Sequence record: OQ718158.1
Reading direction: 5' to 3' (one strand)
DNA length: 64,000 bases
Origin: Escherichia phage vB_Ec-M-J
The notes under the pieces are model-generated. The model did no database searches. It was given only the letters and a program-made list of their open reading frames with translations, and was not told the DNA's origin. Made by a program: the position numbers and the translations under genes. Shown in pieces: positions 23,838-47,229 of this stretch (position 1 is its first letter; each line of letters begins with the position of its first letter).

Positions 23838-24385
23838 GTAAAGCGGAAGTACCACTGGGGCAAATGGGGAAACGTGCAAATTTTGTATTCTGTTTCTTTT
23901 ATGCAAAAGAATGTACCCCATACGCTGGTTATGAACTAAATGATATCCCAGTGGTTAACTTAGTACTCCTACAAGTGCGTTGGGATGGATTGTTGGGTGC
24001 ATGTGGTGGAACAGTTGAAAGTACTGATAAGTCATTAGAAGATGCGTTACAGCGTGAAGTTCAAGAAGAAATGAACTATATCATTGACAAAAGTCGCCTG
24101 TCTCCATTAAAATCACTTGAATTGTTTCCAGAGGGACACTCACATAGCTATAGTTATGAAATGACTTATGCTGAACTTAAAAAACTTCGTGATAATTATG
24201 CATATGGCAAACATGCTAGTGCAGAGGTGGCTGGTGTAAATTTATGTCACATCTCTCGTTATTCGAAGGGACAAAATCGAGAAGCAGGATATAATAATCT
24301 TATGACACAGAACTTCATCGGAACTGCGAAACAAGAATTAGAGTATCTTGTACAAAAAGAAAACTTACTAATCAGCTATCTATAG
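23834..24385 (+). CDS. Nudix-fold hydrolase-like protein
   Basis: Near-canonical Nudix box GGTVE..x..ALQREVQEE with one extra residue. Confidence 0.5.
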   Translation: MSKAEVPLGQMGKRANFVFCFFYAKECTPYAGYELNDIPVVNLVLLQVRWDGLLGACGGTVESTDKSLEDALQREVQEEMNYIIDKSRLSPLKSLELFPEGHSHSYSYEMTYAELKKLRDNYAYGKHASAEVAGVNLCHISRYSKGQNREAGYNNLMTQNFIGTAKQELEYLVQKENLLISYL

Positions 24386-26523: not shown

Positions 26524-26551
26524 GGGACATTCGTCCCATACATGATATAAT
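26524..26551 (+). promoter_or_regulatory. sigma70-like promoter, extended -10
   Basis: GGGACA 26524-26529, 16-bp spacer, TGaTATAAT with TATAAT at 26546-26551. Confidence 0.55.
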
Positions 26552-26873: not shown

Positions 26874-26903
26874 ATCCCTGTCTTTTGGCAGGGATTTTTT
26901 CTT
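26874..26903 (+). terminator. rho-independent terminator
   Basis: ATCCCTG-TCTTTTGG-CAGGGAT followed by TTTTTTCTTTC. Confidence 0.7.
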
Positions 26904-26995: not shown

Positions 26996-27553
26996 ATGTT
27001 TTTTGACCAAACATTTACGTTGTACCATGATTCAGGTAAAGTTGAGATTATTGATAATCTGTTAGAGTACATTGCGGAACATGACGGTATAGACCGTTTC
27101 CACAGTAAGATGAAATTCGATTTAGCTGAATTCAACAAAAAGAATCGTGAAACATTTTGGAAGAACCGTTTCTATTACGAAATGTATCCAGAAAAGTTCG
27201 TAGGTTATTATCTTTGTACTGAAAAAGGATTACTTGTATCTCCTGATTTACTTATGGGTGAATACATGATACTCTATAATGAGTACTGGGAACATAAGCG
27301 TAATGCTCGTGACACTGAATGGCGACACAAGCGTTCGTATATGTACAAACATAACCACTCCAGATACAAACGTCCTAAGACCCAACAAGAGCGTCGTATG
27401 GCTTGTGCAGTACTGAAGGATGAGGGGGAACCTGAAATACGTGGAAGACGTAAGATGCGTTCATTGCCATCGTATTGGGATGATATCAGAACAAGACACA
27501 GTACTGGCTGGAAATACAGTACAAAACGTAAACATCAATACAAAGGGAGCTAA
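26996..27553 (+). CDS. hypothetical protein (basic C-terminus)
   Basis: Track ORF; AAAGGAG RBS. Confidence 0.55.
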   Translation: MFFDQTFTLYHDSGKVEIIDNLLEYIAEHDGIDRFHSKMKFDLAEFNKKNRETFWKNRFYYEMYPEKFVGYYLCTEKGLLVSPDLLMGEYMILYNEYWEHKRNARDTEWRHKRSYMYKHNHSRYKRPKTQQERRMACAVLKDEGEPEIRGRRKMRSLPSYWDDIRTRHSTGWKYSTKRKHQYKGS

Positions 27554-27570
27554 TGCTCCCTAATTTTATA
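27545..27570 (+). terminator. possible terminator hairpin
   Basis: GGGAGC-TAAT-GCTCCC straddling the stop codon, then TAATTTTATA; weak T-run. Confidence 0.35.
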
Positions 27571-27580
27571 GGTGAACTTT

Positions 27581-27910
27581 ATGAACAAAATTGACGTTAC
27601 TGTAGTGATTGGTTATATTGAAATTGAACCGTGTGGCATTGATACCTTTATTGACACTCTTAATAAGTATCGTGCTGAATATGACGGTCACATTAGTCTT
27701 TCACCAGACAGTGGTTACGGCGGTTTTCATGGATACAATGTAATTTGGACCAGAGAAGAAACTGACGAAGAATACCATGCACGAATTGAAGCTGAATCTA
27801 AAAGACGTGAAGAAATTGAACGTCAAGAAATGAAACACTTGATGAACAAGAAATCATTAAGTACCGAAGAGAAATCTAAACTTTTAAAATACATCAAGGA
27901 TTACATGTAA
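27581..27910 (+). CDS. hypothetical protein
   Basis: ATG at 27581 within track ORF 27572..27910. Confidence 0.5.
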   Translation: MNKIDVTVVIGYIEIEPCGIDTFIDTLNKYRAEYDGHISLSPDSGYGGFHGYNVIWTREETDEEYHARIEAESKRREEIERQEMKHLMNKKSLSTEEKSKLLKYIKDYM

Positions 27911-28557
27911 TGAAAAATGTATCACAAGAAAAGATTCTGTACCTTGCAAAGTACAATGGTGGATTTAATATTACCAGTTGTGAATATCATGGTAACATGG
28001 CTAAAATGATTGACGAGCTACTAGAAGGTAAAATGCTCCGTTGGGAGACAAATGACCTTTGGTACGAATATGCGGGTCAACAATGGGAAAGTGACTACGA
28101 TAATGCAATTCATACGTATACAATTACTAAAAGTGGTGAAGTACGTTTGGCTATCATGCGTTGTGCTTACACTTACAAAAATTTCAAAGATGAAGAAAAG
28201 CATATTCGCCGAAATGAAGAGTTAGTACACCTAATGGGTGAAGCTGGCATTACAATGCATGACTTGTTCAATGAACCAAGATGGACTGGGAATCTGACCA
28301 AAGCAGAATACAAAGCATTGCGATACATCCAAGTACCAGAAATCAACAAACCAAAAGAATGTATTGATGATGGTGAACTAAGCCTCAAAAATGTATTTGA
28401 AAGTACCAGTACTGAAAGTATTGCTGATCTTTCAGTTCAGATGGCTATCAAAGCTATGGAACTATTCAAAACACAATATGAAGGACACAGTGCTGAAGAA
28501 GTAGAGCGTGAGTTCATTACGCGAGTACAAATTGCATTACATAAATCAAAAAAGTAG
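27910..28557 (+). CDS. hypothetical protein
   Basis: Track ORF. Confidence 0.55.
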   Translation: MKNVSQEKILYLAKYNGGFNITSCEYHGNMAKMIDELLEGKMLRWETNDLWYEYAGQQWESDYDNAIHTYTITKSGEVRLAIMRCAYTYKNFKDEEKHIRRNEELVHLMGEAGITMHDLFNEPRWTGNLTKAEYKALRYIQVPEINKPKECIDDGELSLKNVFESTSTESIADLSVQMAIKAMELFKTQYEGHSAEEVEREFITRVQIALHKSKK

Positions 28558-28563
28558 GTTCAT

Positions 28564-28743
28564 ATGAAAATTTTACTTGTACTAATCGCCGTTCTTATGG
28601 TATTATCTTGTTCAGTTAGTAATGGTTCATACATTTACGTATCAGTATTTGAAGAAGCACCAACGAACTGTGTATTAACTCACACTGGTATTGTGTTAGT
28701 TAATGGTAAACCATCAATCGAGTACTTATGTATAGGTGATTAA
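28564..28743 (+). CDS. small lipoprotein (59 aa)
   Basis: Own translation MKILLVLIAVLMVLSCS...; lipobox LSC; below track cutoff. Confidence 0.4.
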   Translation: MKILLVLIAVLMVLSCSVSNGSYIYVSVFEEAPTNCVLTHTGIVLVNGKPSIEYLCIGD

Positions 28744-28746
28744 ATT

Positions 28747-28980
28747 ATGAAATTTATTTCTATTGCAATTGTTTCAGCACTCATGATGTTAGTAACAGGC
28801 TGTGCATCTAAAGTTCAGGAGGCTGATGCAGAGTTCATTCGCCAGAATTTGACTAAACTTAACTACGATGGCACATTGTATGCTTGCCATGAGATGCGTC
28901 ATGGGCAAGATCTTAATCTCATGTGCAGGAAGATTGTGAATCGCAAACGTCTTAATACTGTTCCGAAGGATGCACAATGA
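28747..28980 (+). CDS. small lipoprotein
   Basis: Signal peptide with lipobox VTGC. Confidence 0.5.
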   Translation: MKFISIAIVSALMMLVTGCASKVQEADAEFIRQNLTKLNYDGTLYACHEMRHGQDLNLMCRKIVNRKRLNTVPKDAQ

Positions 28981-29147
28981 AAGAAGTAATTGGTTACAAA
29001 TGTAAAAATTGTGGCAAAGATAAGGGTAAGCATTCAGTACAAGGGATGGCTTGTCCGAATCCAGGACGTGGTAATTTCAGAGGGTTCAGTACTGAAAAGT
29101 CTTACGAACTGGATCATACCAAACCTGTAATGGGTTATAAATTATGA
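28977..29147 (+). CDS. small zinc-ribbon protein (56 aa)
   Basis: Own translation MKEVIGYKCKNCGK...MACPNPG; ATGA overlaps on both sides. Confidence 0.35.
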   Translation: MKEVIGYKCKNCGKDKGKHSVQGMACPNPGRGNFRGFSTEKSYELDHTKPVMGYKL

Positions 29148-29503
29148 GTGATTATGTGGCATTTCTTCATCGCTTTGGTGAAGCTCAAGAAAAACACATT
29201 ATCCGTATGCCAGCTTATGGTGAAGAAGACTGGTACAAAAGTACTATCAGTGTAGGTGCATTTCGTGACCGTGAAGCTGAATTCTTTCTGGGTAAGCAAC
29301 ATGAACGAGAGGTACTTTGCTCACTTTGGCGTTTAGATGAATGGGATAGTGAAAATTCAAGAACGGCTAAATCAATGATGACTATTGTTGGTATTGCGAA
29401 CTATCAGCACCCATATGATCTATTACCTACATTTGAACATGCTTCTTTGTTTGACTTTTACAAAGCAGTAGGGTATGATTATAAAAAGAAACGTTACATT
29501 TAA
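29144..29503 (+). CDS. hypothetical protein
   Basis: Track ORF. Confidence 0.5.
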   Translation: MSDYVAFLHRFGEAQEKHIIRMPAYGEEDWYKSTISVGAFRDREAEFFLGKQHEREVLCSLWRLDEWDSENSRTAKSMMTIVGIANYQHPYDLLPTFEHASLFDFYKAVGYDYKKKRYI

Positions 29504-29548
29504 TATCAGTACTGTTATAGTGGCAGTACTTTTTAATTGGAGATTACT

Positions 29549-44214: not shown

Positions 44215-45449
44215 AAAACAATTTTCTAGAACAAACTATTGTGAAACACTTAGCTGGTTCACAGGCGTATGGCACAAGCACACCAGAAAGTGATACCGAT
44301 TATCGTGGTATCTTCCTTGCAAACAAAGAATTTATCCTAACTCCTTTTTTTAATGTTAAGGAAGTTTCAGATCCTTCTGAAGAAGATACTAAATTTTATG
44401 AAGTCAATCAGTACTTAAGTCTGTATACTGAAGCTAACCCAAACATTCTTGAATCACTATGGGTTAAACCTGAACACATCGTAGAAAGTACTGAAATCTA
44501 TGACTATCTACGCTCATTCAATCAGCAATTATTGAGTTCAAAGATTGCACACTCATACAGTGGATATGCATACAATCAGGTTAAGCGTATGTCTAATCAC
44601 CACGGCTGGCTCGATAAGGAACGAATTGCTGAACGTAAACTAAATGAAATTTTAGAAGAACATCCAGTTGACGAAGTACTTTCATGGATGTATGATACAT
44701 TCCCGCAGTATTTGGTAGACCGTTTGAATAAATCCAATCTTCACCCATTCAATGCTACAAAAATTGATTTTGAAAAATACATGCGTGATACTTCATTACA
44801 ATTAGTTTCAACACAAGCATTGAAACAATATCATTTTGTACGTTTAGTACATAATTATAGTACTGATAAAGTATTAGATCGTGATTTCAATTTATTGAAT
44901 TACAATTCAGGGTATGAACTAATCCATTACGGTGAAAACATCTTTGGGGTAATTATCAACCCGAATGAAAGTACAGTGAATGCTGATGGTTCACTACGTT
45001 ACTTCAACAAAGAACGTACTACAGAAGAATTGAAAGTTCGTCCTGAACTCATTGTAAAATTCAATGAAAAGGAATACAAAGAAAATAGTGAGAACCGTAA
45101 GAGTTATCACAAATGGAAGCAGAATCGTAATGCCAAACGTGCTATTCTTGAATCACACCACGGTTATGACTGCAAACATGCTATGCATACAATCAGGCTG
45201 CTGAATACAGCACAGGAAGCACTTGAAACTGGTATCATCCAAGTTCACCGACCGGATGCTGCTATGTTGATGGACATTCGTAACGGGAAGTGGTTGTATC
45301 AAGAAGTTATGGATTATTTCAACGAAAAGGTTGACTACATCCGAAATGTGGCGTATCATAAGACCCATCTACCGAAGCGACCAAACATAAAGTTGGCTAC
45401 GAAGGTACTATTAGATATCCGTGAAATGCAATGGTACAGTAAAAAATAA
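44211..45449 (+). CDS. Pol-beta-superfamily nucleotidyltransferase (RlaP-like)
   Basis: N-terminal hGS-x9-D-x-D motif (AGSQAYGTSTPESDTDYRG) recalled as typical of RlaP-type predicted nucleotidyltransferases. Confidence 0.55.
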   Translation: MKNNFLEQTIVKHLAGSQAYGTSTPESDTDYRGIFLANKEFILTPFFNVKEVSDPSEEDTKFYEVNQYLSLYTEANPNILESLWVKPEHIVESTEIYDYLRSFNQQLLSSKIAHSYSGYAYNQVKRMSNHHGWLDKERIAERKLNEILEEHPVDEVLSWMYDTFPQYLVDRLNKSNLHPFNATKIDFEKYMRDTSLQLVSTQALKQYHFVRLVHNYSTDKVLDRDFNLLNYNSGYELIHYGENIFGVIINPNESTVNADGSLRYFNKERTTEELKVRPELIVKFNEKEYKENSENRKSYHKWKQNRNAKRAILESHHGYDCKHAMHTIRLLNTAQEALETGIIQVHRPDAAMLMDIRNGKWLYQEVMDYFNEKVDYIRNVAYHKTHLPKRPNIKLATKVLLDIREMQWYSKK

Positions 45450-45459
45450 GAGGATTGTT

Positions 45460-45876
45460 ATGCTAAACGAACAAATCAAAGACGCACTACGTGTACTGAA
45501 TCGCGAAGTTAACCGCATCCAGAAAAGTACTGATCGTTATAAACTAATGCATGAACTTAGACTTTCGTTGGAAGCTATCAATAATGGCGAATGGTATCTT
45601 GAACCAGAATATCGCACACGTGAACTAACTGACGTTGAAAAAGCAATTGTCAAATTCATTACAAGTCGCGACAAAAATGCATCCGAAAAAGATGTATCAA
45701 TGAACTTCCATCTTACTAAATGTGAAGTCGTGGAAAAATTTAAATTCGATTGGCTTGACTGGATTGAAATGATCATGGAACTTGAAGAAGAATTCAAAGT
45801 TGAAGTTGATTTGGAATACGAGAATGAAAACACTAAACTGTATAAACTCGTAGATCATATTCAAAAAATGTTGTAA
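45460..45876 (+). CDS. ACP-like (acyl-carrier-protein fold) protein lacking the phosphopantetheine-attachment serine
   Basis: C-terminal FDWLDWIEMIMELEEEFKVEVD resembles ACP helix II ([17 protein letters not shown]) with Ser replaced by Trp; ATG 45460 with AGAGGA RBS. Confidence 0.5.
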   Translation: MLNEQIKDALRVLNREVNRIQKSTDRYKLMHELRLSLEAINNGEWYLEPEYRTRELTDVEKAIVKFITSRDKNASEKDVSMNFHLTKCEVVEKFKFDWLDWIEMIMELEEEFKVEVDLEYENENTKLYKLVDHIQKML

Positions 45877-45929: not shown

Positions 45930-46304
45930 ATGAGTGTACTAGAAATTATTGTTTCAAAAGTTTTAATACCATATTGGAAACCAATTTTGGTAGTAGGAGT
46001 AATGGCAGGTTGTGTTTACGGTGGATGGTCAGCAAATACTTATTATACTGGTTATAAAGAAAGTATTGACCAAAAAATAGAAAAGAAAGTTGATTCTGCA
46101 CTCGCTAAGATGCAGCAAGAAAATGCAAAAAACTATATAGAAACCAAAAAGATAATGCAAGATAATGCTAAAGTTATCGAGACACAAGTGCCTATTATAG
46201 TAGAAAGAGAAGTTTACAAAAATGTATGTCTAGATGAAGATGGCGTTAAACTTCTGAATGAACTTAAACAGAATTCCCTTGCAGCGAGGAATAAATTCAA
46301 ATGA
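45930..46304 (+). CDS. i-spanin-like (Rz-type) inner-membrane protein
   Basis: N-terminal TM helix then charged coiled-coil-like region; ATGA-coupled to a downstream lipoprotein gene. Confidence 0.55.
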   Translation: MSVLEIIVSKVLIPYWKPILVVGVMAGCVYGGWSANTYYTGYKESIDQKIEKKVDSALAKMQQENAKNYIETKKIMQDNAKVIETQVPIIVEREVYKNVCLDEDGVKLLNELKQNSLAARNKFK

Positions 46305-46615
46305 AATACGCTTTAGTATTTGCAATTTCTTTTCTATTAATTAGTGGTTGTGCTGAAGAAATTAAGTATCAACCTAAACCAATTGTAGAACAAGAAATCT
46401 TACTTGAACGTTGTGACGAAAATACACCACTACCAAGTAAAATCATGGTCGATAAAAACGGGTTCAGAGGATATGATGGTGCTGAAATTCTTGCAGTACT
46501 CGTAAAATGGGATGCAATGTACAATGACTGTGCACTAAAACATGATGCATTAATTAAAACTATTCGTGATTTACAAAATCAAGATGTTAAGGTTAAAATT
46601 AAATCCGAGGATTAA
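46301..46615 (+). CDS. o-spanin-like (Rz1-type) lipoprotein
   Basis: Signal peptide with lipobox LISGC immediately downstream of the i-spanin-like gene. Confidence 0.55.
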   Translation: MKYALVFAISFLLISGCAEEIKYQPKPIVEQEILLERCDENTPLPSKIMVDKNGFRGYDGAEILAVLVKWDAMYNDCALKHDALIKTIRDLQNQDVKVKIKSED

Positions 46616-46617
46616 AA

Positions 46618-47229
46618 ATGTCAAAATATCAGGTCTACTATGTTGCCAAACTATCACTTCTTGATGAGTTAAATCAAAGAAGTACACAGATGAAACGCTA
46701 TACATATAACGGTGTTACTTTCCGATACTTCCCACAAAAAGTACTTACATTCGTTAAGAATTGTAAATGCGTTGCGTGTGGTATTGAAGCTACTGAAGTT
46801 CGCATTGAGCGTTCACATAGCACTGATCCGGTATATGGTAAACCTCACTTAAATGTCTATGCAGTTTGTGGTCTATATGAAGTACTGATGACAGTAGATC
46901 ATAACCAACTAGCATCTAAGGGTGGACCTGATTTAGAGTCAAATTACAACACAATGTGTTCACGTTGTAACAGTCTTCGTTCTAATAAAACTGAATCAGT
47001 AGGTGAATTCCTGGAAAAAGTTAAGGGTAGAAATCTACTGGAAGAGCATATGAATGATTTTTTCAATAAAGATAAGAAGAAATCTAAAACTCCTACTCCA
47101 GAAGAATTGGAAGAACGCCGTTTACGTACAGAACTATGGGAAACCGACCATATATGGCATGTTCGTGATTTTGGACGACATATGAAAGCTCTAAAAAAAG
47201 AACAAAAGAAATTGAATAATCACAATTAA
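46618..47229 (+). CDS. HNH endonuclease (possible free-standing homing endonuclease)
   Basis: HNH signature VDHNQLASKGG...N..CSRCNSLRSNK plus CKCVACG zinc motif. Confidence 0.6.
   Translation: MSKYQVYYVAKLSLLDELNQRSTQMKRYTYNGVTFRYFPQKVLTFVKNCKCVACGIEATEVRIERSHSTDPVYGKPHLNVYAVCGLYEVLMTVDHNQLASKGGPDLESNYNTMCSRCNSLRSNKTESVGEFLEKVKGRNLLEEHMNDFFNKDKKKSKTPTPEELEERRLRTELWETDHIWHVRDFGRHMKALKKEQKKLNNHN

Follow-up and report, generated by a model that had tools for sequence, protein, structure and literature searches.

Among the proteins by which phages exclude their relatives, T4 Spackle (Sp) and Imm, P1 Sim, and TP-J34 Ltp are each conserved throughout their phage group, irrespective of receptor. 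Infected or lysogenic cells produce them, and they act on a conserved step of entry, either from the periplasm or from the membrane. Ltp is a lipoprotein; Spackle, a helical protein, and Sim have ordinary signal peptides. The T5 protein Llp, whose mature form has 61 aa and a disulphide, binds the periplasmic face of FhuA (PMC9586334), and Rtp45, of about 6 kDa, binds the periplasmic side of LptDE (PMC12685063; PDB entry 9RPS, deposited in June 2025). The llp gene and the exclusion genes of small siphophages adjoin receptor-binding-protein genes (PMC9586334, PMC11990801), and genes of the Rtp45/Cor type, known from T1-like siphophages, lie in a tail-fibre/receptor-binding-protein locus and differ according to the receptor used (PMC11990801, PMC12685063).

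Here we compare with these systems two small genes, ORF1 and ORF2, of the window, a 64-kb stretch of Escherichia phage vB_Ec-M-J DNA. This is the DNA of an Asteriusvirus jumbo myophage of the 121Q/PBECO4 group, with 97% identity to Turkey3 and CMSTMSU. The initial annotation had placed two adjacent small lipoprotein genes at 28564-28980, a description borne out by exact coordinates, by the lipoboxes (VLS before Cys16 and VTG before Cys19), by conservation and by purifying selection. On sequence grounds, ORF1 and ORF2 are genuine, tightly linked genes.

Predicted prolipoprotein genes and their sorting signals

ORF1 (28564..28743, + strand) encodes a putative prolipoprotein of 59 aa, the counterpart of 121Q gp485, which matches PHROG 22308 (E=7e-29) and is 100% identical in Turkey3, WPEC3/5, and CMSTMSU. 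ORF2 (28747..28980, + strand) encodes a second putative prolipoprotein, of 77 aa, the counterpart of 121Q gp486 and 100% identical to EcMJ_221 of vB_Ec-M-J. Both genes are annotated as CDS in relatives (121Q gp485/gp486, Turkey3 XMR01130/XMR01131), and the public label of these relatives is 'hypothetical protein' with two exceptions: one 'membrane protein' label in fEgEco12, and the ORF1 relatives of Klebsiella phages, which are labelled 'outer membrane lipoprotein'. A search of the literature on Asteriusvirus and RaK2-like phages for transcriptomes, receptors and studies of ORF1/ORF2 returned nothing specific. The two genes lie on the same strand with a gap of 3 nt, and the stop codon of ORF2 overlaps the start of the next gene, g56 (ATGA). 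As read from the sequence, a Shine-Dalgarno-like GTAGGT for ORF1 (28554..28559, + strand) overlaps the stop codon of the upstream 215-aa gene (g215), and the AGGTGA for ORF2 (28734..28739, + strand) lies within the 3′ end of ORF1.

The ORF1 precursor consists of MKILLVLIAVLMVLS followed by CSVSNGSYIYVSVFEEAPTNCVLTHTGIVLVNGKPSIEYLCIGD, with predicted cleavage before Cys16 (mature start CSVSNG). Its signal peptide (28564..28608, + strand) is composed of MK, a 12-residue hydrophobic core and the lipobox V-L-S (MK-ILLVLIAVLM-VLS), and the last 12 residues have a mean Kyte-Doolittle hydropathy of 3.25. The ORF2 precursor consists of MKFISIAIVSALMMLVTG followed by CASKVQEADAEFIRQNLTKLNYDGTLYACHEMRHGQDLNLMCRKIVNRKRLNTVPKDAQ, with predicted cleavage before Cys19 (mature start CASKV), and its signal peptide (28747..28800, + strand) is composed of MK, the core FISIAIVSALMML and the lipobox V-T-G. 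Lipoprotein signals were judged by conservation among relatives and by a PROSITE PS51257-style rule (K/R near the N-terminus, an uncharged h-region, [LIVM..][..][AGS]C, and the Cys at position 15-35), which was run in six frames over the entire 64-kb window. Of 1872 start-stop combinations, only 8 (0.4%) passed, and the only ATG ORFs on the coding strand among them were ORF1, ORF2, and the 104-aa o-spanin gene at 46301. Because so few pass the rule, two adjacent chance lipobox matches are very unlikely, the AT-rich genome notwithstanding.

The signals are also retained among relatives. The lipobox is kept in 26 of the 27 ORF2 relatives and in all 8 ORF1 relatives first tabulated, likewise in the distant relatives found later, and all intact relatives retain the n-region, the h-region and the lipobox Cys. 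The signal peptides of the ORF2 family are nearly unalignable across lineages (MKFISIAIVSALMMLVTGC, MKLLYIFIISSIVFLSGC, MRKNIMKNIFITLTIFVSITLCGC, MKKIIISCLVAGATLLVGC, MKKVLAVLLSTMIVSC and others), with a dN of 0.35-0.9 between relatives, and the lipobox is retained nonetheless. The ORFs are very short and the window has a GC content of about 0.36, as would suit an artefact in which small or even non-coding ORFs carry hydrophobic N-termini by chance. We give this explanation a negligible probability: besides the low pass rate of the rule, the lipobox and Cys pattern is kept across divergent relatives and genera, dN/dS is well below 1, and both ORFs have Shine-Dalgarno sites and are tightly coupled. 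The conservation data effectively refute it.

At position +2 of the mature protein, ORF1 has Ser and ORF2 has Ala; the 34 tabulated relatives have A, S, T or V there (A, S or T in the ORF2 family), and the four proteins of family C (see below) and XaC1 have Arg or Lys. Asp at +2, the inner-membrane retention signal, occurs in none of ORF1, ORF2 and the relatives compared, and outer-membrane sorting is therefore predicted for both products. Weak Pfam, NCBIfam and PHROG matches mainly cover the signal-peptide stretch of lipoprotein families (DUF4223, Lpp/OprI, YgdI/YgdR, Rz-like). We are confident in the prediction that the ORF1 and ORF2 products are lipoproteins of the host outer membrane; the signals themselves define the predicted route, from export through lipidation to outer-membrane sorting, and this prediction has good support.

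Mature proteins beside known exclusion lipoproteins and spanins

The mature part of ORF1 (28609..28740, + strand) has 44 aa and is acidic (pI 4.6), and that of ORF2 (28801..28977, + strand) has 59 aa and is basic (pI 9.0). Each begins with a predicted lipid-modified Cys1 and contains two further invariant Cys, Cys21 and Cys41 in ORF1 and Cys29 and Cys42 in ORF2. In the ORF1 family the spacing between the two is constant at 20 residues; in the ORF2 family they stand at mature positions 29/42, or 30/43 in three distant members, and in ORF2 itself they form the motif Y.CH...LMCRK. AF2 models ORF1 as a 4-strand beta sheet (pLDDT 84) and ORF2 as a helix and 3 strands (pLDDT 63), with the two Cys of ORF2 on two consecutive predicted strands. 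From the conserved Cys pairs, each protein should be stabilised by one periplasmic disulphide between its two further invariant Cys.

Scans of ORF1 and ORF2 against Pfam, PHROG and NCBIfam gave sub-threshold matches only, mainly on the signal peptide, and no functional family. A sequence-profile search of the PDB with both proteins returned no match; one hit to a BURP domain (E=0.17) was set aside as spurious. Fold comparison of the two models likewise gave no match to any known exclusion protein, and neither in sequence nor in fold did ORF1 and ORF2 resemble Llp, Cor, Rtp45, Spackle or Bor. For Cor and Rtp45 there was no PHROG or Pfam match, and none in a 2026 copy of the PDB, which we assume to include entry 9RPS; the Pfam family Lambda_Bor (Bor/Iss) had no match at E<=1; and Spackle, Imm, Sim, and Ltp were absent from the Pfam, PHROG and NCBIfam scans and from the PDB sequence search of ORF1/ORF2.

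Llp and Rtp45 are the nearest physical analogues of the two predicted lipoproteins. T5 Llp and its BF23-type relatives are small prolipoproteins with an outer-membrane sorting signal, face the periplasm and have one intramolecular disulphide, features that are also predicted for the products here; mature ORF2 (59 aa) is close to Llp (61 aa) in size, and Llp, like ORF1 and ORF2, is non-essential. Proteins of the Rtp45/Cor type are also periplasmic outer-membrane lipoproteins, of about 5-7 kDa, from virulent phages. The differences lie in sequence and context. ORF1 and ORF2 have no homology to either type and adjoin no receptor-binding-protein gene. Unlike llp, they are found in phages of many host genera, with no known dependence on FhuA, and unlike the Rtp45/Cor genes, they have nucleotide-metabolism genes as their surroundings and evolve under purifying selection.

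The o-spanins of the Rz1/PseT.3 type are likewise small outer-membrane lipoproteins of lytic phages with periplasmic cysteines. As o-spanins are the commonest phage lipoproteins, and as ORF2 has a weak match to PHROG 'Rz-like spanin' (E=0.031), it is conceivable that the two proteins take part in lysis, either as an extra o-spanin-like component or as a regulator of lysis timing acting from the outer membrane. However, the PHROG match is limited to residues 2-25 of ORF2, on its signal peptide, and a complete, separate spanin pair is already present at 45930-46615. Its i-spanin gene (45930..46304, + strand) encodes 124 aa with an N-terminal transmembrane segment and matches PHROG 1152 'Rz-like spanin' (E=1e-27), and its o-spanin lipoprotein gene (46301..46615, + strand), which overlaps it by ATGA, encodes 104 aa with the lipobox ISG before Cys17. 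The 121Q homologues of this pair, gp511 and gp512, were listed as i- and o-spanin by Kongari et al. 2018 (PMC6139136 supplement). In addition, none of the genes flanking ORF1/ORF2 has a transmembrane segment, hence there is no candidate i-spanin next to them. Neither product has a C-terminal transmembrane domain as in a unimolecular spanin of the T1 gp11 type, the only hydrophobic segment being the N-terminal signal, and the proline content is 1-3%, in contrast to the proline-rich o-spanins. We therefore rejected ORF1 and ORF2 as spanins and consider a lysis-associated role in general very improbable.

The region of the spanin pair also contains an acyl-carrier-protein-like gene directly upstream (45421-45876, + strand), a neighbourhood that has been remarked on for Eneladusvirus too (PMC7760394), and an HNH endonuclease gene directly downstream (46618-47229, + strand; PHROG 23285, E=7e-112). 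The fEgEco12 annotation wrongly labels the spanin homologues 'cell division protein FtsB' and 'lytic conversion lipoprotein'.

The locus in RaK2-like jumbo phages

ORF1 belongs to a family, here called A, whose profile reaches RaK2_00511 (RaK2 ORF511; E=3.5e-17) and the Klebsiella 'outer membrane lipoprotein' entries. By tblastn, family A was found in phages of Klebsiella (RaK2, K64-1, and Muenster), Salmonella (Munch, 7t3, and SE_PL), Yersinia (fHe-Yen9-03/04), Erwinia (pEa_SNUABM_*), Serratia (BF), and Xanthomonas (XaC1). At the five loci inspected (RaK2, Munch, fHe-Yen9-04, XaC1, and pEa_SNUABM_47), each protein has a lipobox and two Cys, and the gene lies in the same block upstream of the dCMP deaminase gene, adjoining g215 homologues in RaK2 and Munch. 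ORF1 shares the lipobox, the mature motifs AP.NC and NG.P...Y.C (in full, NG[IV]P...Y.C) and the syntenic position downstream of a g215 homologue.

Family B, to which ORF2 belongs, is found with the same synteny in Asteriusvirus, EJP2, Erwinia phage Hallingskeid, and a few metagenomic proteins. Its Cys motif has the form Y.CH...(12)...L.C[RK][KQ], which ORF2 has together with the lipobox and the syntenic position. ORF2 is present in 37 phage records; an exhaustive HMM search with it recovered only 3 true small relatives, the rest being repeat-protein noise, and scans of IMG/VR and metagenomes returned only 121Q-like copies. A third family, C, comprises fHe-Yen9-04 g120, pEa47_126, CBB_133, and GAP32_132 and is found at this same locus (L020 of fHe-Yen9-04, 2305-2704; L022 and L023, 2501-2707), both in Eneladusvirus and in Mimasvirus (CBB and GAP32); in Eneladusvirus it directly overlaps the family A gene. 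Families B and C align along their entire mature parts, both Cys and the motif L.[FL][MV]C[KR]K included, with an hhalign E of about 3e-4 and a probability of 16-43%, and family C is a probable distant homologue of family B.

Families A and B have no detectable relation to each other. Paralogy of ORF1 and ORF2 was rejected, as hhalign aligns the lipobox alone and the mature parts give an E of about 0.5. A charge-complementary heterodimer of an acidic A and a basic B protein was rejected as a requirement too, since most lineages carry one family only and family C can be acidic. Munch has family A where its relative EJP2 has family B, and the order common to the families is g215 - lipoprotein(s) - ... 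- g208 - dCMP deaminase - NrdD. As judged from these sequences, nearly every RaK2-like lineage keeps at least one small predicted outer-membrane lipoprotein at this locus, and the window has both A and B. The result is a conserved locus of predicted lipoproteins in RaK2-like jumbo phages, with families A and B/C in phages of nine host genera.

The genes around the pair code for PhoH, Sir2-like, NUDIX, dCMP deaminase and NrdD/G proteins and for small hypothetical proteins, and include no tail-fibre genes; by gene content, ORF1 and ORF2 lie in a nucleotide-metabolism/early-type block. An inferred transcription unit on the + strand (26996..29503) comprises g185, g112, g215, ORF1, ORF2, g56, and g119, which are tightly packed or overlapping, and ORF1 and ORF2 are probably co-transcribed. 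A terminator-like hairpin at 26874..26895 bounds the block upstream, a weak one lies inside it at 27544..27561, and a third, with a T-run (29508..29530, + strand), closes it. A scan for sigma-70 promoters found 40 sites, without enrichment over the 36 expected from shuffles. A promoter-like GGGACA-N16-TATAAT recurs at 24268-24295 and 26524-26551 (+ strand), upstream of small genes, and may be a phage-specific promoter type. The gene g56 (28977-29147, + strand), translationally coupled to ORF2 via ATGA, encodes a 56-aa CxxC...C zinc-ribbon-like protein (PHROG 10623), and a homologous segment sits in larger annotated ORFs in RaK2 (L018, 3386-3514) and Munch (L019, 2331-2474).

Comparison with five relatives (loci L002, L004, L005, L016, and L017) shows that the interval between g215 and ORF2 (28557-28747) is an indel hot spot. 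Depending on the genome, it contains ORF1 alone, a gene for a 323-aa WGR-domain protein with or without a 126-aa gene, ORF1 with the 126-aa gene, the WGR gene with a tyrosyl-tRNA synthetase gene and an ORF1-like gene, or nothing. The breakpoints fall inside the signal-peptide codons of ORF2, so that each cassette brings its own signal-peptide variant. ORF2 is itself mosaic, with a dS of about 1.07 relative to 121Q as against about 0.12-0.13 for the flanking ORF1 and g56. The N-terminal half of mature ORF2 exists in two allelic types, QEADAEFIRQNLTKLNYDG and DEMDAEIIRQGLTKLNHQG, which are shuffled relative to the signal-peptide types.

Natural losses were found as well. In ph0011 (L011, 1393-1500), ORF1 is decayed by an 81-nt deletion between short direct repeats and by a Cys56-to-stop change, and in the four Salmonella phages SD-* (e.g., SD-15_S21, L006, 1499-1692) a single deletion takes out ORF1 together with the signal peptide of ORF2, whose remnant begins MICGCAPKV and has no signal. 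The SD-* phages apparently do without either lipoprotein. Among about 37 Asteriusvirus records, ORF1 is present in 13 and ORF2 in all. Because of these losses and of the patchy distribution of ORF1, the two genes are, on sequence comparison, accessory and dispensable.

Where the genes are kept, they are constrained. Pairwise Nei-Gojobori dN/dS is 0.13-0.22 for ORF1 (relative to 121Q and JNE01) and 0.08-0.15 for the mature part of ORF2, similar to the range of 0.08-0.48 in flanking genes. The mature parts of ORF1 and ORF2 are thus constrained coding sequences under purifying selection.

These patterns bear on receptor-specific masking as in T5 Llp, T1 Cor, and Rtp45, in which each lipoprotein would attach, from the periplasmic side, to the outer-membrane protein that serves this phage as terminal receptor and shut its extracellular loops allosterically. 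The size, the predicted location and the predicted disulphide are the same as in Llp and Rtp45, the position of ORF1 in an indel hot spot and the mosaic nature of ORF2 are expected of host-range-linked cassettes, and the SD-* phages, which infect Salmonella, may have lost the ORF2 signal peptide because the target is specific to E. coli. Nevertheless, we regard such masking as improbable. The pair lacks both homology to these proteins and the adjoining receptor-binding-protein gene of the known cases, its mature parts are under purifying selection, and A and B/C occur in phages of nine host genera that differ in their receptors, among them capsule-dependent Klebsiella phages and EJP2, whose receptor is the LPS outer core (PMC10213699). 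For SHEFM2K, a flagellar receptor has been proposed (PMC11895373). Conservation of this breadth, over nine host genera whose phages adsorb by way of capsule, LPS and possibly flagella, fits poorly with strain-specific receptor masking.

That selection is purifying, and not diversifying, agrees equally well with roles other than exclusion. Together with the broad conservation across host genera, it fits a conserved host target, as does the position of the pair among early-type metabolic/host-takeover genes (PhoH, Sir2-like, NUDIX, dCMP deaminase, and NrdD). It could be that the lipoproteins serve an envelope takeover apart from exclusion, inhibiting or redirecting a conserved periplasmic or outer-membrane function of the host, with a peptidoglycan hydrolase, a protease, an envelope-stress sensor or an outer-membrane biogenesis machine as candidate targets. 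Such a takeover would preserve the envelope while the jumbo phage runs through its long cycle, or weaken a defence based on the envelope. We see it as a possible explanation, if a somewhat unlikely one.

Candidate function and significance

Our best guess, a tentative one drawn from analogy, is that ORF1 and ORF2 act in superinfection exclusion in the broad sense. During infection, both lipoproteins would be anchored in the outer membrane, facing the periplasm, and their binding partner would be something conserved, either in the envelope or along the route by which phages enter. This binding would render the infected cell and its debris refractory to related phages. The outcome would be superinfection exclusion or 'lytic conversion', similar to that of Llp and Rtp45 in the location and size of the proteins, with a conserved target rather than a strain-specific receptor. 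Such a target is favored because of the breadth of conservation, the purifying selection and the absence of linkage to a receptor-binding-protein gene. It could be the entry apparatus of related phages, as in exclusion of the Spackle, Sim, and Ltp kind, or an outer-membrane machine, in which case the lipoproteins could jam it in the manner of Llp and Rtp45.

The initial annotation had read the two lipoproteins as typical superinfection-exclusion or receptor-masking factors. The lipoprotein basis of that reading stands, and its narrower part, receptor masking, is rather disfavored in view of the host breadth, the purifying selection and the missing linkage to a receptor-binding-protein gene. 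Exclusion in the broad sense has evidence against it too: a periplasmic lipoprotein cannot mask LPS directly, the pair has no homology or fold match to a known exclusion protein and no receptor-binding-protein linkage, and the SD-* phages exist without both proteins.

A bolder version of the exclusion hypothesis is that families A and B/C make up a conserved 'lipoprotein slot' of the whole RaK2-like clade. They would then form a new class of lipoproteins, without homology to the known ones, that exclude phages or jam the envelope and are active across genera among jumbo phages. The conserved target would be the tail-tip, lysozyme or ejection machinery of the entering phage, or an essential outer-membrane machine such as LptDE or BAM. 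We consider this version, taken as a whole, unlikely.

From a biological perspective, the annotation of ORF1 and ORF2 can be raised from 'hypothetical protein' to predicted outer-membrane lipoprotein, with a testable hypothesis attached. Asteriusvirus and other RaK2-like jumbo phages are under development for therapy and biocontrol, and >80% of their genes are unassigned. Two families of predicted outer-membrane lipoproteins at one locus, spread over phages of nine host genera, are likely to be in direct contact with the host envelope. If they do jam a conserved outer-membrane machine, as Llp does with FhuA and Rtp45 with LptDE, they would be of use as probes or as starting points for inhibitors. 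Should they exclude related phages, a receptor-independent type would join the short list of exclusion lipoproteins, and cross-exclusion between jumbo phages would bear on the design of phage cocktails.
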